Shown: positions 8,714-43,291 of the stretch, piece by piece | How the letters are laid out: every line of letters starts with the position of its first letter | Position numbering within the stretch: the first letter of the stretch is position 1 | Sequence record: NC_047830.1 | Source: Escherichia phage ST32 | DNA: 53,092 bases | Direction: 5' to 3' (one strand) | Notes under the pieces: model-generated | Databases searched by the model: none | What the model was told of the DNA's origin: nothing | The model's input: only the letters and a program-made list of their open reading frames with translations | Made by a program: the position numbers and the translations under genes

Positions 8714-8833
8714 ATGAAAATTTTATGTTTTGTAGGGCTACATAATTGGGAGATTTCTCATACAAACGATTATGTAACCTTTTGGGTGTGTAAGCACTGT
8801 TCAGCAATGCGTGAGGAATATCATGGCAACTAA
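8714..8833 (+). CDS. possible small Cys-containing protein (39 aa)
   Basis: GGAG RBS 6 nt upstream of ATG 8714; overlaps start of next gene; weak. Confidence 0.3.
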   Translation: MKILCFVGLHNWEISHTNDYVTFWVCKHCSAMREEYHGN

Positions 8834-9719
8834 CGTTATTGAAATACCTGCCAACTTGGTCAAAACTGGCGACGTTGTAATTCATGAAGGTAAAGAGTAT
8901 CTGATTGGGTATGTCTTCAGAATGGGTGTAGTTCAACTGCAATATTCTGGTGGATGTTTCAATTTTGAGTGGGACCAGGCAGTCAAAATCTTGGATAAAC
9001 GTCCTACTACAGACTCCTTTGCAAAACCGGGCGCAACAACACGCGCAGTATTGGCAAGTCAAGTTCGACCCGGCAACACTTTATCTTATGGAATCAGGCT
9101 CTTTAAGATAAAGGAAGTTAAAGACCTGGGGGAAAGTGAGGTTCGCTTAATCCACGAAACAGGCTACTTTGACTTTTTACACAACCGCGTAGTCCATATT
9201 GTTAACGAGCCACCAGCTTTGGAAACTCCAACAATGGCATTCAACACCGAGATAAAGCCAGTGTTCCTTCCTTACGAGGGAGCAGTGAAACCATTCTCAG
9301 ATGAAGAAGATGTTAAAGGTGCTGATGTTGAAGTTGGCGATGTTATCCGGTATAAAGGTGATTGGGCAACTGTCACAAATGCGTACAAACACCCAAATTC
9401 ACCATACAATAAAATCAATATTAACTACGGCGACGTAAAAGGTTTGCAAGTACGTCTGATATTAACTGGAACTTATTCGAGAAAGGTAAAAGCAGTAATG
9501 GAAACATTAAATATTCAAAATGCAATCGAAGCACAACGCATTCTTCTGCAAAAGCTGGAGCAAATGCTTGATTTAACCCAGCTTCCCCCAACAGAAGATG
9601 GCAAGATGGCAATTGGCAATGCATCAATTCGCGTGGACAAGGCAACAGTTGTTAAGGCCGCACGCGATGAAATGAAAGCTGCCGCAAGCAAATCCGCAGA
9701 GCTTATCAAGAAGCTGTAA
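8823..9719 (+). CDS. hypothetical protein
   Basis: ATG 8823 with GAGGA RBS; two similar KTGDVV / EVGDVI segments. Confidence 0.6.
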   Translation: MATNVIEIPANLVKTGDVVIHEGKEYLIGYVFRMGVVQLQYSGGCFNFEWDQAVKILDKRPTTDSFAKPGATTRAVLASQVRPGNTLSYGIRLFKIKEVKDLGESEVRLIHETGYFDFLHNRVVHIVNEPPALETPTMAFNTEIKPVFLPYEGAVKPFSDEEDVKGADVEVGDVIRYKGDWATVTNAYKHPNSPYNKININYGDVKGLQVRLILTGTYSRKVKAVMETLNIQNAIEAQRILLQKLEQMLDLTQLPPTEDGKMAIGNASIRVDKATVVKAARDEMKAAASKSAELIKKL

Positions 9720-11043: not shown

Positions 11044-11322
11044 ATGGAATATCAGGAAATACCGAAAGAGTTAGAGCGTATGCAATCTCGCACATCTCGT
11101 GCAGAGGCAGAACTCCACCAGCATTTGTCAAACTATGTGTACGATTCTCGAAATCTCAGATACGAAATTTCGGTAGATGGTTGTTGCTATCCGGTAACAT
11201 ATGATGAGAAGACCGCCATCTTAGACATATTAGTGAAGGGTGGAAAAGAGCGGATTGAACAGCTCAAAATCCTTAATGCGGAACTTCAAGGCATGTGGGA
11301 GAAACTCAATGCAAAACGATAA
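11044..11322 (+). CDS. hypothetical protein
   Basis: ATG 11044 has GGAG 6 nt upstream; track start 11032 lacks an RBS. Confidence 0.5.
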   Translation: MEYQEIPKELERMQSRTSRAEAELHQHLSNYVYDSRNLRYEISVDGCCYPVTYDEKTAILDILVKGGKERIEQLKILNAELQGMWEKLNAKR

Positions 11323-11857
11323 CATTACTCAAGCAGTAGAACAGCTTAAGTCCTGGCGTAGAGATGAAACCTTATTGGTTCGTTTCTACACAGGCGAAAC
11401 TAATTCTGAATTTGTAGATGCGTGGATTGATGGCCTGTCTTGGCGTCACTATGATTTCGACATGAGAGACTATTTGCATGAAGAATACGGCATTGAATAT
11501 CCAGAAGACGGCACATATGACGTAATTGAATCAAATGAAGAGGATGTTACCGAAGTTTGCTTTGTTGACGGACTTTTCAGCATTCGTAAATATGACAAGT
11601 TCAACGAACTGCTTGTTGATACTGATTTGGACGTAATTCTTGCAGCATTCCGCAGTGGTGATATTGATATTTTCACTGTAGACGATTTGAATGACAAGGT
11701 TATTTGCCGATGTAATTCAATTGCGGATTATTTCCAGCAATATGATGGCATAGAAGTTCCAGACCATCTTCGTCCATATATTGATTGGGATGCAGTTGCG
11801 AGAGATTACGGAAGTGATTACACTTTCTCCGAAGGGATACTATTCTCAAATGCGTGA
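11309..11857 (+). CDS. acidic protein; possible DNA-mimic/antirestriction type (speculative)
   Basis: GGGAG RBS before ATG 11309; strongly D/E-rich; C-terminal YIDWDAVARDYGSDY motif. Confidence 0.5.
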   Translation: MQNDNITQAVEQLKSWRRDETLLVRFYTGETNSEFVDAWIDGLSWRHYDFDMRDYLHEEYGIEYPEDGTYDVIESNEEDVTEVCFVDGLFSIRKYDKFNELLVDTDLDVILAAFRSGDIDIFTVDDLNDKVICRCNSIADYFQQYDGIEVPDHLRPYIDWDAVARDYGSDYTFSEGILFSNA

Positions 11858-13871: not shown

Positions 13872-14546
13872 ATGTCTTATCATGATGATGACAAAGAGAT
13901 TGCACTATCAACGTGTAAGCAATGGCTCAATGATAATGATGCCGTCTATCTTGCCAAGGAAGATGTTATCATTATGTGGGTCCATTTTAATCCAGAATCG
14001 AAGCGCGGTGAGTGGCAACGCTACAAGATGAAAGAGGCTTGTCGCATAATTAAAGCCACACGCGCTGGCTTCTCTGCCATGAAATATATTAAGCCGGAGA
14101 TGCTGATGCTTGCTGCACAGGAAGAAGAACGTGCATATAAGCAGGCTGTTAAATCTCGTTCAACTGTTCCTCCAGAGTTCTTTAATTTGGAGCGCGCTGG
14201 ACACTTCAACAATTTAGAAATGTTGACACTGTGCCTGTTGCAAGAATTAGTTGGAAGAGGACAAAACATTGAAGCTGTTTGTCTTGGAGAACTCATGAAA
14301 GAGTTGTTCTTGGCAAAGGGCTTTGCTGTGCCAAACCGAACTTTACGCTGGAAATTGTTGCGAGCAGTCGCGCAAGAAGCTGGTGTAGTTGTTCGTGACA
14401 GAACTAACCGACTTACCGTAACAGGAGTTGGGCGTTTTGTAGCAATCCAGATTGAGGGTTATGACGAATCAATCATCACTGAACTCACTGTCGCTGAGAC
14501 AAAGGATTTAGTAAATAAAACACTAGAACGATTCAATAGATATTGA
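13872..14546 (+). CDS. hypothetical protein (224 aa)
   Basis: long ORF, ATG start. Confidence 0.6.
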   Translation: MSYHDDDKEIALSTCKQWLNDNDAVYLAKEDVIIMWVHFNPESKRGEWQRYKMKEACRIIKATRAGFSAMKYIKPEMLMLAAQEEERAYKQAVKSRSTVPPEFFNLERAGHFNNLEMLTLCLLQELVGRGQNIEAVCLGELMKELFLAKGFAVPNRTLRWKLLRAVAQEAGVVVRDRTNRLTVTGVGRFVAIQIEGYDESIITELTVAETKDLVNKTLERFNRY

Positions 14547-14669: not shown

Positions 14670-15008
14670 ATGGCTAAGATTGTAACCGTAACTCAGTACG
14701 AAGCTAACGATGGTTCCCTGTTCCTGACCGAAGCAGAGTGTAATGCACATGACTTCAAACTGGAAAACGGTGCTAAAATTGAGAAAGCTGCCGAAGCGTA
14801 CCTGAACACCGTTGGCGCTATCGACCGTTCTCGCTCCATGCAGAAGAACACCATCGAGCAGTTCCTGGCATTCTACCTGCCGTGGGTTGAAGCTGGTGAG
14901 CCGGAAGTTGAGCGTACTAAGTTCGATACCCCGAAAGAAGCTAAAGTTGCTGACGCAAGTGTTGCTGATGCAGCAGAAGCTGCTGTTGAAGAAGCTCCGG
15001 TATTCTAA
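14670..15008 (+). CDS. abundant acidic protein, function unknown
   Basis: strong AAGGT RBS; codons of the highly-expressed E. coli type (CTG, CCG, CGT, GAA), unlike neighbours; promoter motif upstream and hairpin downstream. Confidence 0.7.
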   Translation: MAKIVTVTQYEANDGSLFLTEAECNAHDFKLENGAKIEKAAEAYLNTVGAIDRSRSMQKNTIEQFLAFYLPWVEAGEPEVERTKFDTPKEAKVADASVADAAEAAVEEAPVF

Positions 15009-15084
15009 GTTGCCGATGGCAAACTTGAGAGACTAAGCTAAATCGATCTGGCGTGCACTGGAAGTTTTCCGGTGCTGCCTTGAA

Positions 15085-15107
15085 CCCACTCTGAAAGGAA
15101 GAGTGGG
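15085..15107 (+). terminator. perfect 8-bp hairpin CCCACTCT-GAAAGGA-AGAGTGGG after the abundant gene, no U-tract
   Basis: inverted repeat read from sequence; lacks the T-run of a canonical intrinsic terminator. Confidence 0.35.
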
Positions 15108-15908
15108 CTTCAATGAGCATTCTTGTGATTAGAGCTGGGAGGTAGGCCGATGCCCAAGCTCATGGCCCAGACGAGAGTGTTCATTGAAGTAGTTTTCTGA
15201 GTCTTACGACGGGCCTAAACTGCCTGGAGTTATTGCGACTGTTTTATTCATTTAAAATAAATGCAAATGATTCTGAAATGCGAGTTGCGGCTTAATTAAA
15301 TTTAAGTCCTCTCCGTGGTCTTCCAATCCCACGTAACCAAATTTGGCGCATTGTGGCTTCGAGATGTGATTAATAAATCGGAGCAATAATTAATTTGTAT
15401 TCTGCGATGCAATGCAGGCTTAAGTCCCTCAGTGCGCGTGGGGATGTGACAGAGTACAAACTTAATTATGCAGTTGGATATTTCCGGAGGACGGACGAGC
15501 ACACTGGAATGTCTTCAATTGGTTTAGTGTGAGAAGCTATGCCAATGTGAAACGTAACTCCTTGAGGAAGTGCTCCTCTGGATTTCCCTCCACACAGGAA
15601 TCTCAAGCCTGTGGCAGTGACTTCGAAGCTGCACTGCGTAACCTAATTCACCCTAAAGTGAGTTGCCCTGAGCATGGAAATAAACTGCTCATAACCGATG
15701 GTATCTACAAAGGTAGATTAAATCAGGTTGCCTGTTGGTACTTGGGTTCAACACCTGCTTGCACTCGCAAAGTAGTGCCTTGTACCTGAGATGAAGTGAG
15801 TCGGGACCATCAATCCCACGTTATGTCAAAACACAGTAGGCGACTCACGGATTCTACAAGCCTCGCAGTTCGGGAAAACCTGCGTTATCAAAACCCCCCC
15901 TATTCTTT

Positions 15909-16003
15909 GGACGAGTAGCTCAGAAGGTTTGCATTGTGCTCAGTCAGGTAGAGCAATCTGTTCGACAGATGTGTCGTTGGTTCGAATCCAACCTCGTCCG
16001 CCA
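15909..16003 (+). tRNA. tRNA-like gene, non-canonical (anticodon possibly UCG, Arg); may be a pseudo-tRNA
   Basis: 7-bp acceptor stem GGACGAG/CTCGTCC, T-arm GTTGG-TTCGAAT-CCAAC, encoded CCA; but a roughly 20-nt insertion (AGAAGGTTTGCATTGTGCTC) sits in the D-arm and the anticodon arm is ambiguous. Confidence 0.55.
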
Positions 16004-16028
16004 CTCTCAACAATAACATGGAGTCCTC

Positions 16029-16169
16029 ATGGACATTGATGCATTAGACAATTTGGACTTCGGTGCTGCCGAAGAAGCAATTGAAGAACTCAAGAAGAAG
16101 CAGGACGAAGAAGCAATCGTTCCTGGTGCTGGCGATAATGACTGCTCAAGCGGTGCGTGTGCCATCTAA
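16029..16169 (+). CDS. possible small acidic peptide (46 aa) ending in DCSSGACAI
   Basis: ORF below track cutoff, GGAG 7 nt upstream; starts 26 nt after the tRNA. Confidence 0.3.
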   Translation: MDIDALDNLDFGAAEEAIEELKKKQDEEAIVPGAGDNDCSSGACAI

Positions 16170-16177
16170 GGTGATTT

Positions 16178-16414
16178 ATGCAACAGCTTAAATCAATAGT
16201 TCTTGGCGTCCTGACTGCATTTGGTATTCTCATTGCAGTGTTCCTCAAAGGCAAAAGCTCAGGCAAAGCCGAGGGGCGTCAGGAAGCCACAGAGAAGCAA
16301 CTGGATTCATTAAAAGAATCTATCGAGATTAAATCGCATGTTCAGAAAGAAGTGTCTAGCAGTTCTGATAGCAATGTCGATAGTGAGTTGCTCTCAAAGT
16401 GGGTTCGTAAGTGA
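16178..16414 (+). CDS. i-spanin (Rz-like): N-terminal transmembrane segment plus charged periplasmic domain
   Basis: AAGGTGA RBS; hydrophobic IVLGVLTAFGILIAVFL then charged sequence; overlaps a lipoprotein ORF in another frame. Confidence 0.55.
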   Translation: MQQLKSIVLGVLTAFGILIAVFLKGKSSGKAEGRQEATEKQLDSLKESIEIKSHVQKEVSSSSDSNVDSELLSKWVRK

Positions 16415-16547
16415 TTATTGCTTAATTGCACAACCAATATATTTGGATGTTGCAGAAGTGAAAATACTATCACGCGAAACCAAAACACAGATTTTAGTCC
16501 ACAATGAAACGTGGGCACAAAAGTGTTCGAAACTTACCCGACAGTGA
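16338..16547 (+). CDS. o-spanin (Rz1-like) outer-membrane lipoprotein
   Basis: signal peptide with lipobox IVSC; starts inside the i-spanin gene in the +1 frame and extends beyond it. Confidence 0.55.
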   Translation: MFRKKCLAVLIAMSIVSCSQSGFVSDYCLIAQPIYLDVAEVKILSRETKTQILVHNETWAQKCSKLTRQ

Positions 16548-17403
16548 GTGAACAAGACGGACGTCTATAACTTCCCACATAAAGTCGAGGGAGTGCGCGA
16601 CTTTAAATAACGAGACTCTAGCAACTTGTTGCGATGGTGGTGTAAGCCCATGCGTTTGGAAGCAGGACTCCAACTCAAACAAACCTGCAAATTGCTCTGG
16701 GCATAACAATTGAAATTGCTGCCTCGCATTGAACGCGAGAAAGTTCAGGTAGTCACTTCCTAGAACAGTGTCCGAGAACACCCTCGCCAAAGTGCTTGAG
16801 AACGTTAGCTCTGTCTTGCCAGCATTAATGGCACGTTGGCCGCGTAAAGGCCACAGCGTCTGACCAACGTATCGGTCACCAAATTCAATGGATTCGTAGA
16901 GTTAATTAAACCTGCACGATGGGATAGGGATGTAGCATCCGAGGCCGACTGTGTAATTGTGAACTTCGCGTTCGCCGAATCCGCCAATCGGGAGAAAGTG
17001 CTGTGGACGATATTGTATCGTAGGTGGTCGCATTCCACCCTCCCAACTTCTACCAAACAGTTATGCCTCTGTTCAAAAGGCTCAAGAGAGCGTCTGGCAT
17101 ACCGTAGCGATACGGCTTAGTTGCGCTGATTGTGTTGTGCAGAAAGAAAGTTCAGGCTTTCGTTTGGGTTACTCCTCATCCCGAAGTTAGCTGGATTCAA
17201 AATCCAGACTATGTTCCTATACACATGAAATATGCAAGTCGAGGGTTCTTAATGTTCAAACATGATGCGAGCATTAAGCGGGTTTATACTTTTCCCCGAT
17301 GGTCCCCATAAACAAGGCTGATTCACTTGGGCGGTTCGAATCAAATTTAATAAGTGTTTTGTAATAGTCAGGGCACTTACTTAAATTTTAACTGGAGAGA
17401 AAC

Positions 17404-17634
17404 ATGAAAACTGCTGAAATTGCCGAAGAGATTTATAAGGCCGTAATAGCCAACCAAATCACAAGTGAAGTCCTGCACATGGATATTGAAGAAGTTCGCA
17501 ATGCCTTTGGTGGTTTTGCAATCTTGTCAATAGAGGCTGCGGAAGCACTGACAAACACGTACAATCAACGCGAATATGAAAAGCGTTCTGTACTAAATGC
17601 GTCGCTGAAAGAAATACAGGCGTCATTAAAATAA
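17404..17634 (+). CDS. hypothetical protein
   Basis: ORF with GGAGAG RBS. Confidence 0.55.
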   Translation: MKTAEIAEEIYKAVIANQITSEVLHMDIEEVRNAFGGFAILSIEAAEALTNTYNQREYEKRSVLNASLKEIQASLK

Positions 17635-17690
17635 TACCATTATCATGGTGCGGAGCTAATTAATCTCCCACCATATGAACCGGAGAGCAA

Positions 17691-18341
17691 ATGATTACTG
17701 CAACACTCGTTGACCACATGGGCAGCGACCTCACAACTGTTAATGCTGCACGAGTTTCTTATGGTGCAGAGTCGCATGAAATATCTTTACGTGACGAGAA
17801 GCTGATTGAGTTTCTTGCAAAGCATAAGCACATTACGCCGTTTCGCCACGCACAGGTAACATTGCGTTGCAAAGCTCCAATCTTCATTGCACGTCAGCTT
17901 GGCAAACATCAAACTGGCTTTAGTTGGAATGAGGTTAGCCGTCGTTACAAAGATGGTGAAGCAATCTCTATTGAATGCTTTGTACCAGATGTTGTATTTG
18001 GTCGTCCTGAAAAGTTGATGACTCAGACTGCACAACCGTTGCCACAAGATTTTGCTGACGATATTCATTATCGCATGGAAAGCCATAACAAGGCTTGCAT
18101 CGCAGAGTATGAAACGTTAATTGGTTTGGGGATTGCCCCAGAGCAAGCTCGCATGGTTCTTCCACAATCCATGATGACTGAATGGATTTGGACTGGCTCA
18201 CTTTATGGCTGGGCATCTATGTATAATCAACGTTCCTCCGAACATGCGCAATATGAAGTTCGCTTGTTTGCGGAAGAAGTGAATAAAATCATGTCAGAAC
18301 TGTTCCCAATTTGTTGGAAGGCTCTGACCAACCAGGAATAA
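17691..18341 (+). CDS. thyX: flavin-dependent thymidylate synthase (ThyX)-like
   Basis: ThyX blocks VNAARVS, HITPFRH, KAPIFIARQ, SWNEVSRRY, ARMVLP; canonical RHR appears as KHQ. Confidence 0.8.
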   Translation: MITATLVDHMGSDLTTVNAARVSYGAESHEISLRDEKLIEFLAKHKHITPFRHAQVTLRCKAPIFIARQLGKHQTGFSWNEVSRRYKDGEAISIECFVPDVVFGRPEKLMTQTAQPLPQDFADDIHYRMESHNKACIAEYETLIGLGIAPEQARMVLPQSMMTEWIWTGSLYGWASMYNQRSSEHAQYEVRLFAEEVNKIMSELFPICWKALTNQE

Positions 18342-18345
18342 ATAA

Positions 18346-20109
18346 ATGAACGTCAAGCAATGTGTGGCTAAGATTAAGCACGATGTACCAGACTGTAAAT
18401 CCACATCTGGCAAGTCTTTACAGGTTTGGTTGAATGTCGATGAAGCTGGTAATAAGAACTTCTCTGGTTACTGCTTTGCGTGTGGCGTTCTAGTACCAAA
18501 TCCTTATGGCAATAATCCGGAGAACATTCCAGAGATTAAAGTCAAAACTCCAGAAGAAATTCAGGAAGAAGTTGATGAAATCACTGCTTGTCCTCCGTTT
18601 GATTTAACCCATCGCAGCATTGAGCCAGAATTTTGGAAAGCTGCTGGTGTTCGACTTCTGTATTCAGAGTATGATGGAAAGACTCCAAATGCTCTGGCAC
18701 ATGGCTACACCAAAAATGGCAAACTTGTTCGTTGGAAGATTAAACTTCTGAACAAGAAAGTCATGTGGTCGGTTGGCGACACTCAGGGTAACGACCCTTA
18801 CAACTGGATGGCTGCAAAAGCAATTGGCGGTAAGACACTGTTCATCACAGAAGGTGAAGAAGACTGTATCGCATTGCGTCAAATCCTCAAAACTATGAAC
18901 CGTGGTGGTGCATACGAAGATTTGGATTTTGCTGTAATTAGTTTGAGTGACGGGAGTGATTCCGTACACAAATGTTTGTCACCAGTTGCAGAAGAAATTA
19001 AGCAACGTTGGGAGCAGGTTGTTATCGTATTTGATGATGATGAACCTGGACGTAAAGCTGCAAAAGAAGCGTGCCGATTGTTGCCTGGTGCAATGATTGC
19101 AACACTTCCAGCTAACGATGCCAACGATTGTTTGAAGCGTGGCTTGCTGAAAGCTACTCAATCTGCTGTTGTGTTCCGTGCTGCTCGTCCTCTGCCCACA
19201 GCACTTGTCAACAAAGAACTTCTTATGGAAGAGCTTGATGACGAGGTTGAACAGGGTGTGGATTATCCTTGGCCTAAGTTAACCGACTTAATGTTTGGTC
19301 AACGTCGAGCCGAAGTTATTACAATTGGTGGTGCAGAAGGTGGTGGTAAAACTACACTGTCCCGTCAGATTGTGCACCACAACATTACCAAGCATGATTG
19401 GGGAGTGTTTACTGCATACATGGAGGAAACTCCTACAGAAACACTGCGCCGAATGGCTGGCCTTAATGACAACTTGCCATATTGGGAACCTGCGTTCACT
19501 CGTGAAGACCCTCGATATGATGAAGCTAAGTTCCGTCAAACTGCTGCGAAGATGCTTCGTAACATGGAGATTTGGGACCGCAAGCAAGCTGGAGAAGACC
19601 CTTATGAAACCTGGGATGGGTTAAAGACGATTCTTCGTCAGATTGGACCAGACATTGATATGTTTGTCCTTGATAACTTAACCTACTTATCGGAAGGGAT
19701 TTCTGCCTCAGAGAAGAACGACTTCTTAGGTAAGCTGTATGCAGATATTACTAAGCTGGCAGACCAATACCAGTTCCATGTAAATATTCTGTCACACCTT
19801 AACCCTGTGGCAAAAGGCCAACGACCTCATGAAGATGGTGGACGTATTAAGAAGTCAGACTTTACTGGCTCTCGTGCTGCTGCTAAATATTCTCATGGTA
19901 TGTTCGGCTTTGAGCGTAATAGCCAGGCAGTTGACCCAAACTGTTCTATCATTCGTTCCATTAAGGCTCGTAAGAGTGGTAAAACAGAAGGCTTTAAGAC
20001 TTACTACGACACCGAATCTGGTCGAATCATCCAACGTTCTTGGGATGACTCGCTGTTCGAAACCAAAGAGATTGTTCAGCTTACTAAGAAGAACGGTCCA
20101 CACCAATAA
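18346..20109 (+). CDS. primase-helicase (T7 gp4-like)
   Basis: N-terminal Cys zinc motif (CFACG), TOPRIM-like FITEGEEDCIAL, Walker A GGAEGGGKTT. Confidence 0.85.
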   Translation: MNVKQCVAKIKHDVPDCKSTSGKSLQVWLNVDEAGNKNFSGYCFACGVLVPNPYGNNPENIPEIKVKTPEEIQEEVDEITACPPFDLTHRSIEPEFWKAAGVRLLYSEYDGKTPNALAHGYTKNGKLVRWKIKLLNKKVMWSVGDTQGNDPYNWMAAKAIGGKTLFITEGEEDCIALRQILKTMNRGGAYEDLDFAVISLSDGSDSVHKCLSPVAEEIKQRWEQVVIVFDDDEPGRKAAKEACRLLPGAMIATLPANDANDCLKRGLLKATQSAVVFRAARPLPTALVNKELLMEELDDEVEQGVDYPWPKLTDLMFGQRRAEVITIGGAEGGGKTTLSRQIVHHNITKHDWGVFTAYMEETPTETLRRMAGLNDNLPYWEPAFTREDPRYDEAKFRQTAAKMLRNMEIWDRKQAGEDPYETWDGLKTILRQIGPDIDMFVLDNLTYLSEGISASEKNDFLGKLYADITKLADQYQFHVNILSHLNPVAKGQRPHEDGGRIKKSDFTGSRAAAKYSHGMFGFERNSQAVDPNCSIIRSIKARKSGKTEGFKTYYDTESGRIIQRSWDDSLFETKEIVQLTKKNGPHQ

Positions 20110-22411: not shown

Positions 22412-23278
22412 ATGGCATTTGCTGCTCCTACACTGGCCTCGAACAAGACTCCTTCTGCTGCACCATTACTGGAAGCGGGTGGTTATCCTGCTCGTGTTTG
22501 CCGTATTATCGACCTGGGCTTACAGCCTGGTTCTGCTAAATATCCTACTCCTTCCTTGAAACTTCTGGTGACTTTCGAACTGCTCGACGAGTACATGAAA
22601 GAGGTTGACAGTGAAGGTAAAATGGTCATGGTCCAAGACCCAGACGAAGATGACGGCATCATGATGGCGAAGAATCTTGAAGACAAGCCGCGTTGGTTTG
22701 ACTTTGAGTTTACCTATAATGCTGACGGCTTCATGGGTGAGAACTCCCACATCTACAAATTCGCTAAAGCGATTGATGCACTGGAAGTTAAACCGAATCT
22801 GGAACAAGGTATTCAGGGCCATCCTGCCAAGAACCTGCCAGATTGGTTGGGCGAACCTCTGATTGTTGGCATTGTTCAGTATACCAAGCAGTCAGGTAAG
22901 AATGCTGGCCAGGTTGCAAACAAAGTTGCTACCTTCTCTCCGATGAAATCTAAGGAGAAGAAAGAGGCTAAAGCTCTGGTTAACCCGACTGTCTTCTTTG
23001 ACATGTCTGAGCCGGACCTGGAAGTATTCAACAAACTGCCAGGTGGCGAATCTCCGTATGCAATCAAGAACCGCATTACTTCCGGTGTTGATTTCTATAA
23101 GACTAAGCTGTCTGCACTGTTAGGCGGTAAACCTGCCGATGAAGGCGCTGTACCGAATCAGGCTTCTGATGAAGAAGTTGATGCAGCTATGAAAGCTGAA
23201 CTGGAAGCACAGGCTGCTGCAAAAGCACAGCGTGAAGCGGAAGGTGGTGCTGCTGGCGGTACGGGTATGCCGTTCTAA
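22412..23278 (+). CDS. abundant protein, possible ssDNA-binding/annealing protein (ends ...GGTGMPF)
   Basis: host-like high-expression codon usage; position between DNA polymerase and exonuclease; C-terminal PF tip; followed by a terminator. Confidence 0.6.
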   Translation: MAFAAPTLASNKTPSAAPLLEAGGYPARVCRIIDLGLQPGSAKYPTPSLKLLVTFELLDEYMKEVDSEGKMVMVQDPDEDDGIMMAKNLEDKPRWFDFEFTYNADGFMGENSHIYKFAKAIDALEVKPNLEQGIQGHPAKNLPDWLGEPLIVGIVQYTKQSGKNAGQVANKVATFSPMKSKEKKEAKALVNPTVFFDMSEPDLEVFNKLPGGESPYAIKNRITSGVDFYKTKLSALLGGKPADEGAVPNQASDEEVDAAMKAELEAQAAAKAQREAEGGAAGGTGMPF

Positions 23279-37764: not shown

Positions 37765-38223
37765 ATGGCTTGTGAATTGCTTCAACGTGAATTCACAAAC
37801 TCCAAAGGCGAAACAGTGTTAGTCGTTGTTCGACAATTGTCGGCTTCGGCTGCACTGTCTCTTCACGCGGAGTTGGTAAGCAAGTTAGGCTCACGAGTAT
37901 TTCCATTCATCGAAGGTAAATATAACTTCGCTGATATTATATACTTGATGCAGCAAGTAGAGCATACCGTATTCACAGAATTGTTTAAGCGTGTTATCAG
38001 CATGCACTCGTCCATAGACGGACAAGAAATCAAACCTGCATTATATGATATGCAGTTCAATGGCGAATTGATGTTGTCTTGCCATGTCTTTGCTTTCGTG
38101 CTCGAAGCAAACTTCCTTGATTTTTTCAAGCAAGGGCTCGAAATCAACGAACAGAGACGATTGGAGGCGGAGGAAGCATCCAAGCTGGCAGAGCAGAAGA
38201 ATTCGAGTCCGGAGACAGTTTAG
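37765..38223 (+). CDS. tail assembly chaperone
   Basis: position between tube and tape measure; overlapping ORF in another frame; T6 slippery run. Confidence 0.6.
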   Translation: MACELLQREFTNSKGETVLVVVRQLSASAALSLHAELVSKLGSRVFPFIEGKYNFADIIYLMQQVEHTVFTELFKRVISMHSSIDGQEIKPALYDMQFNGELMLSCHVFAFVLEANFLDFFKQGLEINEQRRLEAEEASKLAEQKNSSPETV

Positions 38224-38299
38224 TATCCCTGTTCCCCGACATAAAATATTTTCTGCATCGTCCTATAATCGAAGACAGTTCTCTCTGCAAGTTACGTGA
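38084..38299 (+). CDS. tail assembly chaperone frameshift extension (expressed as fusion via +1/-2 shift at 38121-38126)
   Basis: ORF in +1 frame relative to 37765-38223, no RBS at its ATG, extends 76 nt beyond the chaperone stop. Confidence 0.4.
   Translation: MSLLSCSKQTSLIFSSKGSKSTNRDDWRRRKHPSWQSRRIRVRRQFSIPVPRHKIFSASSYNRRQFSLQVT
38121..38126 (+). other. candidate programmed frameshift site (TTTTTT followed by C) in tail chaperone gene
   Basis: homopolymeric T6 run inside the 140-nt two-frame overlap. Confidence 0.45.
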
Positions 38300-38382
38300 A
38301 TTGCAAGATGGAACCTATTCGATTATGGACTTATTGCTATTCCACGACATTCTCGATTTGCGTAAGAAACTCGAACCAGTAG

Positions 38383-41300
38383 ATGAAGACAATGGCTAAT
38401 CAAAAAGATTTAATGAAGTTGAGCGTTAATGAGTTAATTGCATTAGGCTCTCAAAGCGGTCTGACTTTCCATGCTGGTATGAAGAAGTCGCACATGGTTC
38501 AACAACTTAGTGCGAGCGCTGCTTCGGGATGGCTGGATACAAATGCAGAATTAATGGGTGGGTCGTTTGAAGATGACAGTTTAATTACTGAATCTTTGGG
38601 CGACTCTTCCATGATTTCAGACGCTGCCCACATTGCACAAGTGCTTTCAAGTGCTGGCTACACAGAAGCATTTCATGCAGCAATGAATGGCCCAACACAC
38701 CATGTAGAAGCTGTTCACGCATACATGGAAAGGCTTGGCGTCAACACAGATGATGTGTGGATGCACATGCCAAAGCCAAATCCGAACTTACCGCAAGGTA
38801 GCTTCAACATGCTTAATGCCTATATGCGAGATACTTTGCAAGGGCATCAAGATATTATGCCAGAAATCCCAGGCCACTATGCTGGGGATATTATGGCTGA
38901 ATACTCCACCAACCGTGGAAACATTGCCGACTCATACAACTACATGGCTCACATGTATGTTGACCGTGAGCAGTACAGCAATCATGAACAATACGCAAGA
39001 GACATTAGTCGAGTTGCCAAACGTCTGGAACAAGAGTTACCCGCAGCCTTTAAGGAAGTTGGGTATACCTCGGCCTCTAATGTAGGAAATAAATCGGCCC
39101 CACATATTTCTTACATGGATGCACTTCCTCAGATTGGCTCTCATTCAATTGTTTCTGGCATTGCACATCCTCGTGCGCCTCTTAACGCATCTGGACTTCC
39201 TCTTGGTTCATATGGTTCTGGCATAAATCCAGAATACTCCCTCACTGCATCATTAACTGGTGGCACAGGTTGGAGCGAACCAAGCAAGGCTTTATATTCC
39301 TCTATTAGTGAAGCTGTTAAATCTGCTGCCAAAGTTTATTCTGGCTCCAAAGGGATGATGAATACTCGTCACGAAGTATCTGACCGTGACATGATTATGG
39401 ACAGCGCAACTCGCTATACAGATTTGGAAGAAGCCAGAAGCGGGTATGAAAACCTTCGTTCTGAACTTGCAGATGAACCAGCTTATTCTGCATCGAGTGT
39501 TCGAGCTATTCTCGAAAACACTTACGACAAAATGGATGCCGAACCTGTTCGCATTCCAAAGATGAAGGGAGCTTCACAGCGAATCGAAAAAGATTCGCAA
39601 CCAACATCTACAGAATTTACAGCACAACTTGGAGAGGCCACCAATTGGAACTCTGCAAGAATGCGTCGTGAGGAAATTGCGATTGCAAATATGGATAGTG
39701 CTGGATTCCGTGATGTATCAGACTATGGCACAGGACGTTCCGAGTCTCCCGTCAGATTCCACGACTTAGAACAGGGTAGCCAAGAGTGGTTAGACTTCCG
39801 TAAAAATTATGACATAACTGGCTCAACTGTTGGAACTTTCTTAGGAAACAACCCGTACACCCGACCTTGGGCGGGAATGATTGACAAGATTGGTCTATCT
39901 CGTAGTAAAGAGCACAGCGATTTCACCAAGAAGATGTTCGCTGATGGTCACAGGACGGAAGAAGAAGCACGCGCTCGTGTTGGTAAGGAATTTGGATTCG
40001 ATATCAAACAAACTGGCGCTATAACAAATGACAACTATCCCGCCTTCATGTATTCTCCTGATGGTCTTATTGGCGATGATGCCATTTGGGAGCATAAGAA
40101 TCCGCAAAGGGCTGGTAAGTTTGCTGACCTTCTTAAAGGCGACCATCCAGATTACATGGACCAAATTCAATTTGGTATGCACGTTTCTGGCCGTTCTCGT
40201 GCTTTGTTCTCACAAACCATCAACGACGAAACACGTTCGCAATGGATTGAGAAGGACGAAGGATGGTACGAGAGAAACCGAAATCGCCTTGATTCTGTGC
40301 TTGGCCGCCTTGATGCTGGGCGAGAGTTTGTTAGAAACAATGCTGGACTAGACCGAGAAGAACTGATTGCTGGTGCAAGAAGTGCAATGACTGGTGACGG
40401 AATCTGGAAGGATATTCGTCAAAGGTCAACTCGTGGCTATTCTGCCGTTGCTGGAACTCCAGAAGACCCATTCATTGGTTCACGTTCTTCATACAATCCA
40501 ACGGCATCTTACTCAGACTACCAGCCAAACTTTGTAATGCACGAGCAAAACTTTCCAGCAACCACAGGAAATGGGGATACTGGAAACGACTCGATGGCAT
40601 TGTCTGTTAAGAAAGGTATCCTTGCTGCTCAGGAAGAAAACAGGCAGAAGGGTATCGGTGCAGATGCAGACTTTAACGGCAAAGCCGATTCAATGGGTTG
40701 GGACCGCGAAAGATTTGATGCTGCCAATGGCGGTGGATATTCTGGCGGTGGCGGTGGTCGTGGCGGTAACTTCACAAGTGGTGGCAACTACTATGATGAC
40801 TACGGTCGCATGGGTGGTTCACTAGCTGCTGGTATTGCTGGTGGCAGTATTGGTTCAGCAACCAACGGAGTTATGCAAGCATTGATGGCAACTCCTGCCG
40901 GACGTATGGCTGCTGTGGGCATTGGTGCTATTCAGATTGGCAATGAAGCTGCTGAATACATGAATGACTTTATCGGCAATTCGCTTGATGCTGGTGTGAT
41001 AAATCCTAATGAATACTCTTCTATGTCGCAAGGCTTGGAGATGTTAGGACTAAACTCCCAACAAGCGGCACGTCTGAATCAAACCGCACATAGTGCCTAC
41101 AACACCATGCTTAACGGCGACCCCAGCGCCGCTGTGAACATCGTTCGCGGCAGTAGGGGATTGCTCACCATAGGTGATATTCGTGCGACAGGCGGCGACC
41201 CTGTGGCCCTGGCTCGCATCATGCAGGAAAGGGGCAAGGAGCGTGGCTGGAGTCAGGCCCGTATCGCAGGTGCTGCCGAAATGGCTGGCCTGAATGGGAT

Positions 41301-42108
41301 GGCGCGAGCCTACGACCGCACTGAATACAGTCATGAGCAAGCTGGTTCGGTGGTAGAAGCGGGTAGAAACTCTGACTTTGCCGAAGGTATGGCCCAATCG
41401 GAAATGTTGCAGGGAAGCCGCGCACGGATGCTGCCGAGCTATAACGTGCCACAAAGTGTCTTATCTAACGGTGCTTCCGTATTTGAGGCTGGCAGTGATG
41501 CACTTGATAGTGTACGCACTGGATTCAACAATACGCGAGAATTTGCTGGAAGTGTTTACGACTTTATCGCCCAAGAAGAATCTGGCGGTCGTGAATATAA
41601 CAAGGATGGTTCCCGTGTAACAAGTCGTACTGGTGCTCGTGGGATAATGCAGATTCTTCCTTCAACAGCCCGTGACCCAGGATTTGGAATCAGGCCATCT
41701 GATGGAACTCCGGAAGATGATGCGCGAGTTGGTCGTGAATACTATGACGCAATGTACAAGCGTTATGGCGACCACGAAAAGGCAATGGCTGCTTACACCG
41801 ATGGTCCTGGCACTGTTGACAAAGCTGTTGATAAGAATGGGTTGGATTGGCTAACTGCTGTTCCTGTACAAGCACAGAATCGCGTCAAAGCATTCCGTGA
41901 ATGGTCCAAGTCTTCTCAGTCTTTGGAAGAAGGTGCTACAGGGTTTACTCGTAATGGAATGTCATACGGTCAAACCCAAACTGTTGTTAATGTTAAGATT
42001 GATGCTAAGGTCAACAACCAGACTGCCTCTGCTACAGTGGCAATTCCTGGTGGCCAGACTGTAACTCAACAGATGAACATGAACAACGGTGCGCAACAAA
42101 GAAGATAA
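38383..42108 (+). CDS. tape measure protein with embedded YqaJ-like nuclease domain and C-terminal lytic transglycosylase domain
   Basis: 1241 aa after tail chaperones; N-terminal Rho-N/SAP-like segment; QGSQEWLDFR...ITGSTVG...SPDGLIGDD..WEHKNP (YqaJ-like); GARGIMQILPSTARDPGFG (SLT-like); Gly-rich tract. Confidence 0.75.
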   Translation: MKTMANQKDLMKLSVNELIALGSQSGLTFHAGMKKSHMVQQLSASAASGWLDTNAELMGGSFEDDSLITESLGDSSMISDAAHIAQVLSSAGYTEAFHAAMNGPTHHVEAVHAYMERLGVNTDDVWMHMPKPNPNLPQGSFNMLNAYMRDTLQGHQDIMPEIPGHYAGDIMAEYSTNRGNIADSYNYMAHMYVDREQYSNHEQYARDISRVAKRLEQELPAAFKEVGYTSASNVGNKSAPHISYMDALPQIGSHSIVSGIAHPRAPLNASGLPLGSYGSGINPEYSLTASLTGGTGWSEPSKALYSSISEAVKSAAKVYSGSKGMMNTRHEVSDRDMIMDSATRYTDLEEARSGYENLRSELADEPAYSASSVRAILENTYDKMDAEPVRIPKMKGASQRIEKDSQPTSTEFTAQLGEATNWNSARMRREEIAIANMDSAGFRDVSDYGTGRSESPVRFHDLEQGSQEWLDFRKNYDITGSTVGTFLGNNPYTRPWAGMIDKIGLSRSKEHSDFTKKMFADGHRTEEEARARVGKEFGFDIKQTGAITNDNYPAFMYSPDGLIGDDAIWEHKNPQRAGKFADLLKGDHPDYMDQIQFGMHVSGRSRALFSQTINDETRSQWIEKDEGWYERNRNRLDSVLGRLDAGREFVRNNAGLDREELIAGARSAMTGDGIWKDIRQRSTRGYSAVAGTPEDPFIGSRSSYNPTASYSDYQPNFVMHEQNFPATTGNGDTGNDSMALSVKKGILAAQEENRQKGIGADADFNGKADSMGWDRERFDAANGGGYSGGGGGRGGNFTSGGNYYDDYGRMGGSLAAGIAGGSIGSATNGVMQALMATPAGRMAAVGIGAIQIGNEAAEYMNDFIGNSLDAGVINPNEYSSMSQGLEMLGLNSQQAARLNQTAHSAYNTMLNGDPSAAVNIVRGSRGLLTIGDIRATGGDPVALARIMQERGKERGWSQARIAGAAEMAGLNGMARAYDRTEYSHEQAGSVVEAGRNSDFAEGMAQSEMLQGSRARMLPSYNVPQSVLSNGASVFEAGSDALDSVRTGFNNTREFAGSVYDFIAQEESGGREYNKDGSRVTSRTGARGIMQILPSTARDPGFGIRPSDGTPEDDARVGREYYDAMYKRYGDHEKAMAAYTDGPGTVDKAVDKNGLDWLTAVPVQAQNRVKAFREWSKSSQSLEEGATGFTRNGMSYGQTQTVVNVKIDAKVNNQTASATVAIPGGQTVTQQMNMNNGAQQRR

Positions 42109-42181: not shown

Positions 42182-43291
42182 ATGCCGTGGCTACGCAGAG
42201 TTGAAGTAATAGTTTCACGTAAAGAAGACCCAAGCATTCGGACGGTATTTAAATCACATCGTATTGATTTTGAAGTCCGTTCCACTGTTGGGTGGCCCGC
42301 CGATACAGCAAACATAACTCTGTTTAACTTGTCGTTAGAAGAAGTTAAGTTCCTCCAAGACAAGTCCTACGGAGATATGTATATTGAAATTCGTGCAGGG
42401 TATGCAGAAGATGAACGCTCCGATTCTGGTGGCGGGGCTTCTAGCGGTGGTGTTAAGAAGTTTGGTCAAAAGGCTGAACAGAGTGACCGCGTAACAGTGT
42501 CCACCTCACTGCCAACCATCTTCTCTGGCATTATCACAAACGCAGTTGGCTACAGAAAGCCTCCTGAACATGTAACACAACTGTTCTGTATTTCTAAGGC
42601 ATATGGTGCATCAACTGATTTCAAACAGCTGACTGCAATCAAACCTGGAACCAAGCTCATTGATGCAATGCGCTCAATGTGTTCTGACTATGGATTCAAT
42701 ACCATCTCCACATTTGGTGTTGAAGATTCAGTCCTTGAAACAGTAATGCCTCGTGGGCGTGTGTTTCATGACACATTCTTGAATGAATTTCGTAACATGC
42801 TTGGCGAATACAATTTGCTATACACTGTTACAACTGGTGAAGTTCAAATCTTCCCAGACACCTTTGGTGATAAAGATGCAGTAAACAGAATGTCCAAAGA
42901 CAGAGAGCCAGTTAAGCTGGATGCCAACTCAGTCATTGGAAATCCTGTTGCTGGAATCTGCACCTATACTTTAAACACATTCCTAAACCCATCTTTCCAA
43001 CCAGGGATGATTCTTGATGTATCTCCTTTGCTGGGAGACGAACTACTTGCCAATGGTGTAACCTCTGTTTCAGGGGAAGGTATTGTTCTTAACACAGACC
43101 AGTCCGTATTCCGGTGGGCTGTTGAAGACAAATACTTCATCATGGAAGTTGTGCATAAAGGCTCGACTCACTCAACCATTTATCAAACATCAATCACTGC
43201 AATATTGGGTGGCAATACAATGATGGGTGGTAAGGAAGCTGCGTGGCAGGAAATGTATGCTAACAGTGGAATGGCAATGGAGTCATTTTAA
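42182..43291 (+). CDS. tail/baseplate structural protein (hypothetical)
   Basis: ORF after tape measure. Confidence 0.55.
   Translation: MPWLRRVEVIVSRKEDPSIRTVFKSHRIDFEVRSTVGWPADTANITLFNLSLEEVKFLQDKSYGDMYIEIRAGYAEDERSDSGGGASSGGVKKFGQKAEQSDRVTVSTSLPTIFSGIITNAVGYRKPPEHVTQLFCISKAYGASTDFKQLTAIKPGTKLIDAMRSMCSDYGFNTISTFGVEDSVLETVMPRGRVFHDTFLNEFRNMLGEYNLLYTVTTGEVQIFPDTFGDKDAVNRMSKDREPVKLDANSVIGNPVAGICTYTLNTFLNPSFQPGMILDVSPLLGDELLANGVTSVSGEGIVLNTDQSVFRWAVEDKYFIMEVVHKGSTHSTIYQTSITAILGGNTMMGGKEAAWQEMYANSGMAMESF

Follow-up and report, generated by a model that had tools for sequence, protein, structure and literature searches.

What would a nuclease be doing in the middle of a protein of the phage tail? 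The question is raised by ORF66 of Escherichia phage ST32, an open reading frame (ORF) of 1241 amino acids (aa) in the 53,092-nucleotide (nt) sequence NC_047830.1, the whole of which was analysed here and is referred to below as the window. Table 2 of the paper describing ST32 lists ORF66 at 38,383-42,108 with 1241 aa, under the label 'tail fiber', while an earlier note, made from the sequence alone, took it for a tape-measure protein and placed inside it a YqaJ-like nuclease domain at 39760-40240. We consider it highly probable that ORF66 does carry a competent nuclease domain within a tape measure, and that this arrangement is conserved throughout the family, the Chaseviridae, to whose genus Carltongylesvirus the closest records in the phage record collection belong (93-98% nucleotide identity over the gene). 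Proteins of the ORF66 type are labelled differently from record to record, as tail fibre, endonuclease, exonuclease, tape measure or hypothetical, with some GenBank records and PHROG 149 bearing automatic 'exonuclease/yqaJ/endonuclease' labels. Among the PHROGs, ORF66 itself matches phrog_19855, 'virion structural protein', over its full length, and RecE-like exonuclease and lytic tail-protein families in part.

The case for the nuclease starts from the Pfam hidden Markov model (HMM) YqaJ (PF09588), which matches aa 468-604 with E=2e-13 and 51.3 bits (cut-off 22) over profile positions 1-149 of 150, and both the coordinates and the motifs given in the earlier note proved right, with QGSQEWLDFRKNYDITGSTVG at aa 464-484 and MYSPDGLIGDDAIWEHKNPQ at aa 556-575. 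A sequence search of the PDB with ORF66 returned the alkaline exonuclease LHK-Exo (3syy, E=2.4e-6) as well as Slt70. When aa 453-680 were aligned with 40 free-standing homologues (41 members in all), every one of the 15 columns invariant among the free-standing proteins was found to be kept in ORF66: Q464, G465, W469, R473, T479, G522, E526, Y557, S558, P559, D560, G561, E570, K572 and Q594. In the PDB, a profile built from this alignment finds LHK-Exo with an E value of 6e-56 and lambda exonuclease with one of 3e-29, and aligns R473, E526, D560, E570 and K572 with R28, E85, D119, E129 and K131 of lambda exonuclease, the 'SPDGL ... ELK' of the lambda enzyme lining up with the 'SPDGL ... E-x-K' of the family. 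As the column of K572 reads alanine in the chain of the lambda exonuclease K131A mutant, we take D560, E570 and K572 to be the equivalents of D119, E129 and K131, and the D/E/K triad whose absence would have spoken against a nuclease is present and invariant in the 41 homologues and in all Chaseviridae orthologues. Also invariant are W469, R473 and ITGST at 478-482, which make up the W..R..(I/V)T(A/G)S motif and in which R473 aligns with the R of lambda 'WHKLRLGVITAS'.

The predicted structure is of the same mind. An AlphaFold2 (AF2) model of aa 453-680, computed with the alignment supplied (pLDDT 87.3, pTM 0.83), has the lambda-exonuclease version of the PD-(D/E)xK fold that the earlier note had anticipated: in a Foldseek search of the PDB, lambda exonuclease and LHK-Exo rank first, with E values of ~1e-10 to 1e-9 and TM of 0.62-0.80 (lambda exonuclease, E=2.6e-10, TM 0.66-0.69; LHK-Exo, TM 0.69/0.80), followed by Cas4-like and MGME1 PD-(D/E)xK nucleases. 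Among the predicted viral structures of BFVD, an independent model of a 1230-aa orthologue matches best, in its corresponding region (TMq 0.86), and the rest are YqaJ or alkaline exonucleases. The domain shares ~20-23% of its residues with the solved structures and 32-39% with the nearest metagenomic homologues that stand free. The HMM match, the motifs and the predicted fold thus make ORF66 aa ~453-680 a member of the YqaJ/lambda-exonuclease family, and it is apparently a complete and catalytically competent domain of the Mg-dependent, 5'->3' double-stranded DNA (dsDNA) exonuclease type.

That the protein around this domain is the tail tape measure of a Chaseviridae myophage is supported by the order of the genes, by a conserved predicted frameshift in the chaperone gene and by the virion proteomics of an orthologue, in agreement with what the earlier note had assumed. 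PHROG assignments give the order sheath, tube, chaperone, ORF66, baseplate hub, tail protein and spike onward, and the chaperone-ORF66-hub layout recurs in 10 orthologous loci. On a divergent metagenomic contig (L029, Logan ERR11042197), an E217-type sheath, tube and chaperone are followed by a 1303-aa YqaJ protein and then by baseplate genes. In an outgroup with a related sheath, Burkholderia vB_PL1, the slot is filled by an ordinary 685-aa tape-measure protein that has no YqaJ domain. Ten of 11 related loci, contig L029 and the Nefertitivirinae-like Aeromonas phage ZPAH140 among them, have the slippery heptamer T_TTT_TTC and a -1 extension of 88-97 codons that runs up to the start of the big gene, with Faunus lacking the exact heptamer; in the ST32 paper the distal part of the ST32 extension is annotated as a separate gene, ORF65, at 38229-38399. 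A chaperone with a predicted -1 frameshift is the G/GT-type arrangement that typically lies 5' of tape-measure genes.

No Pfam or PHROG tape-measure family matches aa 1-456 or 673-1055 of ORF66, where the only match is to the family's own PHROG 19855, but this weighs little, as tape-measure proteins are very diverse. In phage 4HA13 the orthologue ranks with the most abundant proteins of virions purified on CsCl, its coverage by liquid chromatography-tandem mass spectrometry (LC-MS/MS) being 64-67% (PMC9699118 Table S2). Since the part of the 4HA13 protein that runs through the nuclease makes up 57% of it and the part C-terminal to the nuclease 43%, coverage exceeds what either part alone could give, and peptides must come from both sides of the nuclease. 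The length of the protein can be compared loosely with that of the tail: 132±9 nm, as reported for ST32, corresponds to ~880 helical residues at ~1.5 Å per residue, and ORF66 minus the ~228 residues of the nuclease and the ~115 of the SLT domain leaves ~900. This agreement is only a loose one, because aa 230-450 and 690-810 look largely non-helical and the full-length model is unusable.

How unusual is such a fusion? In a tblastn search of 50,697 phage records with the domain, the matches fall into two sharply separated sets: ~80 Chaseviridae records have it with at least 54% identity, within genes of ~1200 aa, and all matches outside the Chaseviridae show less than 35% identity and come from free-standing genes labelled 'exonuclease/RecE-like/YqaJ', often with a RecT or Erf gene beside them. 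IMG/VR contigs agree with this: apart from the ~52 kb contigs of the Chaseviridae, they have the match at the N-terminus of proteins of 211-537 aa. In these two collections embedded copies are thus confined to the Chaseviridae, the other homologues being free-standing or N-terminal in proteins of 200-540 aa, and the earlier note's description of an internal nuclease as unusual is borne out. A word-indexed search of proteins with the domain as query gave nothing but free-standing proteins (181-290 aa); the Chaseviridae family is evidently missing from that database, as none of its proteins came up. Among the records is PP952070.1, 'Staphylococcus phage Pel53' (host given as S. hyicus), which by sequence is a Carltongylesvirus; its ORF66 protein is 77% identical to that of ST32 with the same full-length architecture, and the Staphylococcus host label looks doubtful.

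Within the Chaseviridae the nuclease reaches well beyond the close relatives of ST32. In ZPAH140 the same slot (L011:10520-14098) is occupied by a 1192-aa protein, ~23% identical to ORF66 over colinear stretches. Pfam places YqaJ at aa 560-700 of this protein (1.1e-8), where the D...ExK and QxQ motifs are both kept, and a domain scan detected no SLT domain in it; proteins of this type occur in 28 records from Aeromonas, Shewanella and Vibrio phages, some of them auto-annotated 'exonuclease' or 'yqaJ'. A library of 1.84 billion representative proteins, searched exhaustively with HMMER, yielded only 21 representatives at E <=1e-30. YqaJ is retained by each of the seven long homologues that diverge most (30-35% identity, 1188-1446 aa) and SLT by four of them, the latter being undetectable in the metagenomic homologues P0057, P0058 and P0150. 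With YqaJ present in both subfamilies and in all of these divergent homologues, the nuclease is the most constant feature of the ORF66 protein family.

Conservation within the protein points the same way. In an alignment of 10 Cleopatravirinae orthologues (genera Carltongylesvirus, Sabourvirus, Suwonvirus, Loessnervirus, Faunusvirus and Myducvirus, plus Yersinia phages), the nuclease core at aa 458-612 is the most conserved segment of ORF66, with 36% invariant columns as against 2-28% elsewhere, and the longest invariant run of the 1241-aa protein is YSPDGLIGDD (557-566), followed by WEHK (569-572). By the Nei-Gojobori method, the core has a dN/dS of 0 when compared with SKA49 and of 0.10 with Mangalitsa, and its dN against 4HA13 is 0.13, the lowest of any segment (others 0.23-0.38). 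With conservation the highest in the protein and dN/dS of at most 0.1, the domain is under strong purifying selection, and the idea that it is a decayed remnant can be ruled out.

The same region is mosaic. Between ST32 and phiEcoM-GJ1, aa 1-125 are encoded by DNA of 98-100% nucleotide identity, which drops to 46-79% (mostly 46-70%) across aa ~150-700; downstream of aa ~700 it recovers to mostly 80-98%, apart from another low of 62% near aa 1033. From this pattern we conclude that the nuclease-bearing middle (~1.65 kb) is an exchangeable cassette. The ST32 nuclease domain is 80% identical to that of 4HA13, 74% to those of Yersinia phages and 55% to that of GJ1, and the Cleopatravirinae have two 'alleles' of the domain, an ST32/4HA13/Yersinia/Loessnervirus type and a GJ1/MLP1/PM1/Faunus type.

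Besides the nuclease, ORF66 has three other recognisable parts. At its C-terminal end, where the earlier note had placed a lytic transglycosylase at about 41540-41850, aa 1061-1152 (nt 41563-41838) indeed match the Pfam SLT family (PF01464) at 48.9 bits (cut-off 21.3; E=5.9e-13), which like the YqaJ match is far beyond chance; the domain aligns to Slt70 and contains E1066-S1067, GIMQ and AYTDG, which correspond to the Glu-Ser, G-x-M-Q and A-Y-x-x-G motifs, the ES being invariant in orthologues. Upstream of it, a Gly-rich stretch is followed at aa ~811-852 by a hydrophobic segment that may interact with membranes, and the highest Kyte-Doolittle hydropathy in ORF66 over 19 residues is 1.2, at aa 834. 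Gly-rich or hydrophobic segments and C-terminal lytic domains are common in tape-measure and ejection proteins, and their presence here agrees with the tape-measure assignment. The suggestion of a Rho-N/SAP-like N-terminus fared less well. When a profile of eight orthologous N-termini was compared with the PDB, 12 of 13 matches were to the Rho N-terminal domain (Rho residues ~5-49), at E=0.012-0.08, whereas Pfam Rho_N (PF07498) matches only one of the eight N-termini, at E=0.071, and ORF66 itself lies below its reach. A Rho-N-like, nucleic-acid-binding motif in the N-terminal ~50 residues is plausible but marginal.

What the nuclease could act on depends on the ends of the genome and on the company that it keeps. 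Members of the Chaseviridae are myophages with a T7-like RNA polymerase and linear, non-permuted genomes with direct terminal repeats of ~2.3-3.2 kb, the repeat length having been established experimentally or by PhageTerm. No terminal repeat is present inside the window (1-53092), the first and last 30-50 bases of which are unique, and given the repeats of the family the deposited sequence must hold at most one repeat copy. The phage encodes a T7-like replication set that includes an SSB (a protein that binds single-stranded DNA) and a FEN-type 5'-3' exonuclease, and it has no other YqaJ gene. No annealing partner of the RecT, Erf, Red-beta or Sak type was recognised among the early and middle ORFs with PHROGs and Pfam, or in the annotation of the near-identical phage SKA49, which argues that the nuclease is no ordinary exonuclease-plus-annealase module. 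Proteins of 288 aa (22412-23278), 302 aa (8811-9719) and 224 aa (13872-14546) have no Pfam family and match only 'unknown function' PHROGs, and might conceivably be novel annealing proteins; the position of its gene, between those of the DNA polymerase and the 5'-3' exonuclease, makes the 288-aa protein a candidate for such a partner in annealing or recombination.

The reading that we favour is that the nuclease is delivered with the genome. In long-tailed phages the tape measure is oriented with its C-terminus at the tail tip and its N-terminus towards the head and the packaged DNA end. On tail contraction the ORF66 protein would be expelled ahead of the DNA, the SLT end leaving first to cut peptidoglycan, the hydrophobic segment engaging the inner membrane, and the N-terminal half, with the nuclease and the possible DNA-binding motif, leaving last and immediately ahead of the DNA. 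Because at least three folded 26 kDa domains are unlikely to fit a lumen of ~4 nm, the nuclease domain would probably be stored in an unfolded or staggered state and refold after ejection, and since lambda exonuclease is a trimeric ring and tape measures, too, are oligomeric, with three or six chains, reassembly at that stage is conceivable. Enzymes of the lambda exonuclease/RecE type require a dsDNA end and find no substrate in a chromosome or plasmid that is circular and intact, and as the obvious ends at that moment would be those of the phage genome, it is on the entering genome that the nuclease may act. Resection in the 5'->3' direction within the expendable terminal repeats would expose complementary 3' tails, which could drive circularisation by single-strand annealing or the formation of concatemers, and would turn blunt ends into long 3' overhangs on which RecBCD loads poorly. 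The earlier note had offered both the degradation of host DNA and the processing of the incoming genome as roles for the domain; the former would seem to fit a DNA-end-dependent enzyme of the lambda-exonuclease type less well than the latter. That the nuclease is delivered at infection and processes the ends of the incoming linear genome is, in our estimation, a little short of an even chance. The complete scheme is possible but somewhat more doubtful: in it, Chaseviridae virions would carry a pre-loaded recombination enzyme, a tape-measure nuclease that enters ahead of the DNA, reassembles (possibly as a toroidal trimer), resects the repeats before phage expression, circularises or concatemerises the genome and blunts RecBCD.

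A number of points weigh against delivery and end processing. The unfolded or staggered state is an assumption forced by the poor fit of at least three folded ~26 kDa domains in the tube lumen, and only a few copies of ORF66 would be carried per virion. The phage also encodes a T7 gp6-like FEN 5'-3' exonuclease, and in T7 the gp6-type enzyme already handles the processing of terminal repeats. A single-sequence AF2 model of aa 1-1200 was uninformative (pLDDT 34.9) and says nothing reliable about helical content, domain packing or the N-terminal motif. The 64-67% coverage in 4HA13 is no proof of peptides from the nuclease region itself, and the same virion preparation contained the non-structural SSB (PMC9699118) and was therefore imperfectly pure.

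Might the nuclease instead work late in the producer cell, in recombination, concatemer processing or host DNA breakdown, before the tail is assembled or after cleavage from the rest of the protein, so that the fusion is mainly an arrangement for its expression? Its free-standing relatives are recombination exonucleases encoded beside annealing proteins, ST32 has no second YqaJ gene, and the difficulty of fitting a folded domain into the tail tube would disappear. We nevertheless think this unlikely. The fusion, in the centre of the protein, persists in both subfamilies and in homologues of ~30% identity, which suggests that physical linkage matters; the virion coverage in 4HA13 requires peptides from both sides of the domain; and no internal start or processing site is evident in ORF66.

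The domain could also have been retained for its shape, as a non-catalytic lambda-exonuclease fold that serves as an oligomerisation knot, a length spacer or a genome-end clamp in the neck, pulling or protecting the DNA in the manner of Mu N or T4 gp2. The three- or six-chain make-up of tape measures would suit such a role, and the ORF66 N-terminus may bind nucleic acid. Lambda exonuclease itself is a toroidal trimer that encircles DNA (title of PDB 1avq). What makes this improbable, to about the same degree, is that the catalytic and phosphate-binding residues are all invariant from E. coli phages to an Aeromonas phage, and a scaffold would have no need of them, even if a clamp for DNA ends might still keep some of the catalytic residues.

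If delivery is granted, the target need not be the phage's own DNA, and the nuclease could, as in the first suggestion of the earlier note, be a weapon used at entry against chromosomal, plasmid or prophage DNA of the host or against a co-infecting phage. Its active site is intact, the protein is apparently virion-borne, and the ~1.65 kb domain cassette has been swapped between close phages, as arms-race genes are. Here the need of this enzyme type for a dsDNA end tells in the opposite direction, an intact circular chromosome or plasmid offering none; only a handful of molecules would be available per infection; and dN/dS of at most 0.1, together with the invariant motifs, indicates conservation and no diversifying selection. 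We regard this use of the nuclease as decidedly unlikely.

Finally, the reading of ORF66 as a tail fibre or a T4 gp5-like cell-puncturing protein, inspired by the GenBank labels 'tail fiber' and 'probable T4 gp5 analog' and by a C-terminal lytic domain that resembles gp5 in function, is so improbable that we reject it, since separate hub, spike and three fibre genes lie downstream, a chaperone gene with a predicted frameshift, the hallmark of a tape measure, lies directly 5', and other curators annotate the protein as a tape measure.

Processing of the incoming genome thus remains our preferred, if tentative, reading, and it is instructive to set ORF66 beside systems that are better understood. 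Like lambda exonuclease, LHK-Exo and YqaJ (PF09588; PDB 1avq, 3sm4, 3syy), the domain has the same predicted fold, equivalents of R28/E85/D119/E129/K131 and the YxxQxQ motif, but those enzymes are free-standing proteins of ~200-290 aa encoded beside RecT, Erf or Red-beta, whereas that of ORF66 is embedded at aa 453-680 of a virion tail protein. With tape measures that bear cell-wall hydrolase modules ORF66 shares its length, a probable place in the tail lumen, the slot between chaperone and hub, and an enzymatic module that would serve at entry, which in ORF66 is SLT. Such tape measures include Pb2 of T5 and the mycobacteriophage tape-measure proteins with Rpf or peptidase motifs. What sets ORF66 apart from them is that its additional module would target DNA, and that in its family this module (seven of seven divergent homologues) is kept more often than SLT (four of seven). 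T4 gp2, Mu N and the P1 Dar proteins come into the cell with the genome and counter host nucleases or the exposure of linear DNA ends, and the role proposed here is like theirs; they differ in being neither lambda-exonuclease-type nucleases nor parts of a tape measure, and no homology to them was found, though no search aimed at it was made. T7 gp16 is an ejected virion protein with an SLT motif that assists the entry of the DNA, and its phage likewise combines a single-subunit RNA polymerase with direct terminal repeats, but its SLT is at the N-terminus, it is stored in the head core, and it has no nuclease domain. Tape measures with embedded cell-wall hydrolases are well known, and we know of none with a nuclease. 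A published description of a YqaJ-tape-measure fusion was not found in the literature searched, in which two papers that mention both list them as separate genes. The enzyme family and the embedding of enzymes in tape measures are thus familiar; what seems new here is a conserved fusion of nuclease and tape measure.

The features of the locus are collected below.

Table 1. Features of ORF66 of phage ST32 and of the genes on either side (positions in the window).
Feature	Coordinates (nt)	Strand	Basis or remark
Tail assembly chaperone gene, short form, 152 aa	37765..38223	+	PHROG 11820 'tail assembly chaperone', E=2.5e-75; directly 5' of ORF66
Predicted -1 programmed frameshift heptamer T_TTT_TTC, zero frame of chaperone gene	38121..38127	+	-1 frame opens exactly at the heptamer, 90 codons
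Chaperone -1 extension; predicted long form ~211 aa in total; overlaps ORF66 start	38127..38399	+	
ORF66, 1241-aa tail tape-measure protein with embedded enzymes	38383..42108	+	PHROG 19855 over full length; chaperone-to-hub slot; 4HA13 orthologue in virions
Rho-N-like helix-extended-helix motif, aa ~9-50, marginal	38407..38532	+	Orthologue profile against Rho N-terminal domain in PDB
Mosaic cassette, aa ~150-700, with the nuclease domain inside, exchanged between lineages	38830..40482	+	ST32 versus phiEcoM-GJ1 nucleotide identity
Lambda-exonuclease/YqaJ PD-(D/E)xK nuclease domain, aa 453-680	39739..40422	+	Pfam core aa 468-604 = nt 39784-40194
R473 codon, equivalent of lambda exonuclease R28 (5'-phosphate binding)	39799..39801	+	Invariant in 41 family members
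Catalytic D560 ... E570-x-K572, within YSPDGLIGDDAIWEHK	40060..40098	+	Invariant in all orthologues; aligned with lambda exonuclease
Gly-rich stretch aa 781-812, then hydrophobic Gly/Ala-zipper segment aa ~811-852	40723..40938	+	Read from sequence
SLT lytic transglycosylase domain, aa 1061-1152	41563..41838	+	Pfam SLT; E1066-S1067, GIMQ and AYTDG motifs
Baseplate hub gene, immediately 3' of ORF66	42182..43291	+	PHROG 196 'baseplate hub', E=1.3e-51

Elsewhere in the window, a single tRNA-Leu(CAG) gene at 15909-16003 (ARAGORN; Rfam, 43.8 bits) sits in ~2.7 kb (15008-17691) that contain no ORF of 100 aa or more. A 205-aa early protein (11240-11857) matches PHROG 14321, 'anti-restriction protein', at E=1.2e-52, and would be a separate and conventional anti-defence gene; its match to Pfam ArdA is weak (E=7e-4) and below threshold. 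On the divergent contig L029, a 348-aa protein with a Pfam match to RelA_SpoT (alarmone synthetase) is encoded at 17583-18629, inside the baseplate cluster, between the gene of an 'xxxxx_N' protein and that of the sheath initiator.

The early survival of linear phage genomes with terminal repeats in the face of host exonucleases, and their passage to a replicable state before the phage has expressed anything of its own, are understood for only a few model phages. At the least, the domain structure described here should help in annotating a protein that is now labelled inconsistently between records, and it raises the structural question of how an enzyme domain of 26 kDa passes through a tail tube. 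The hypothesis is directly testable, as these phages grow easily on E. coli. If it is true, the nuclease of the Chaseviridae tape measure would represent a new class among the enzymes that virions deliver, with DNA and not the cell wall as its target; tape-measure proteins would be able to carry cargo directed to the cytoplasm, and the processing of genome ends would be a function of the tail.

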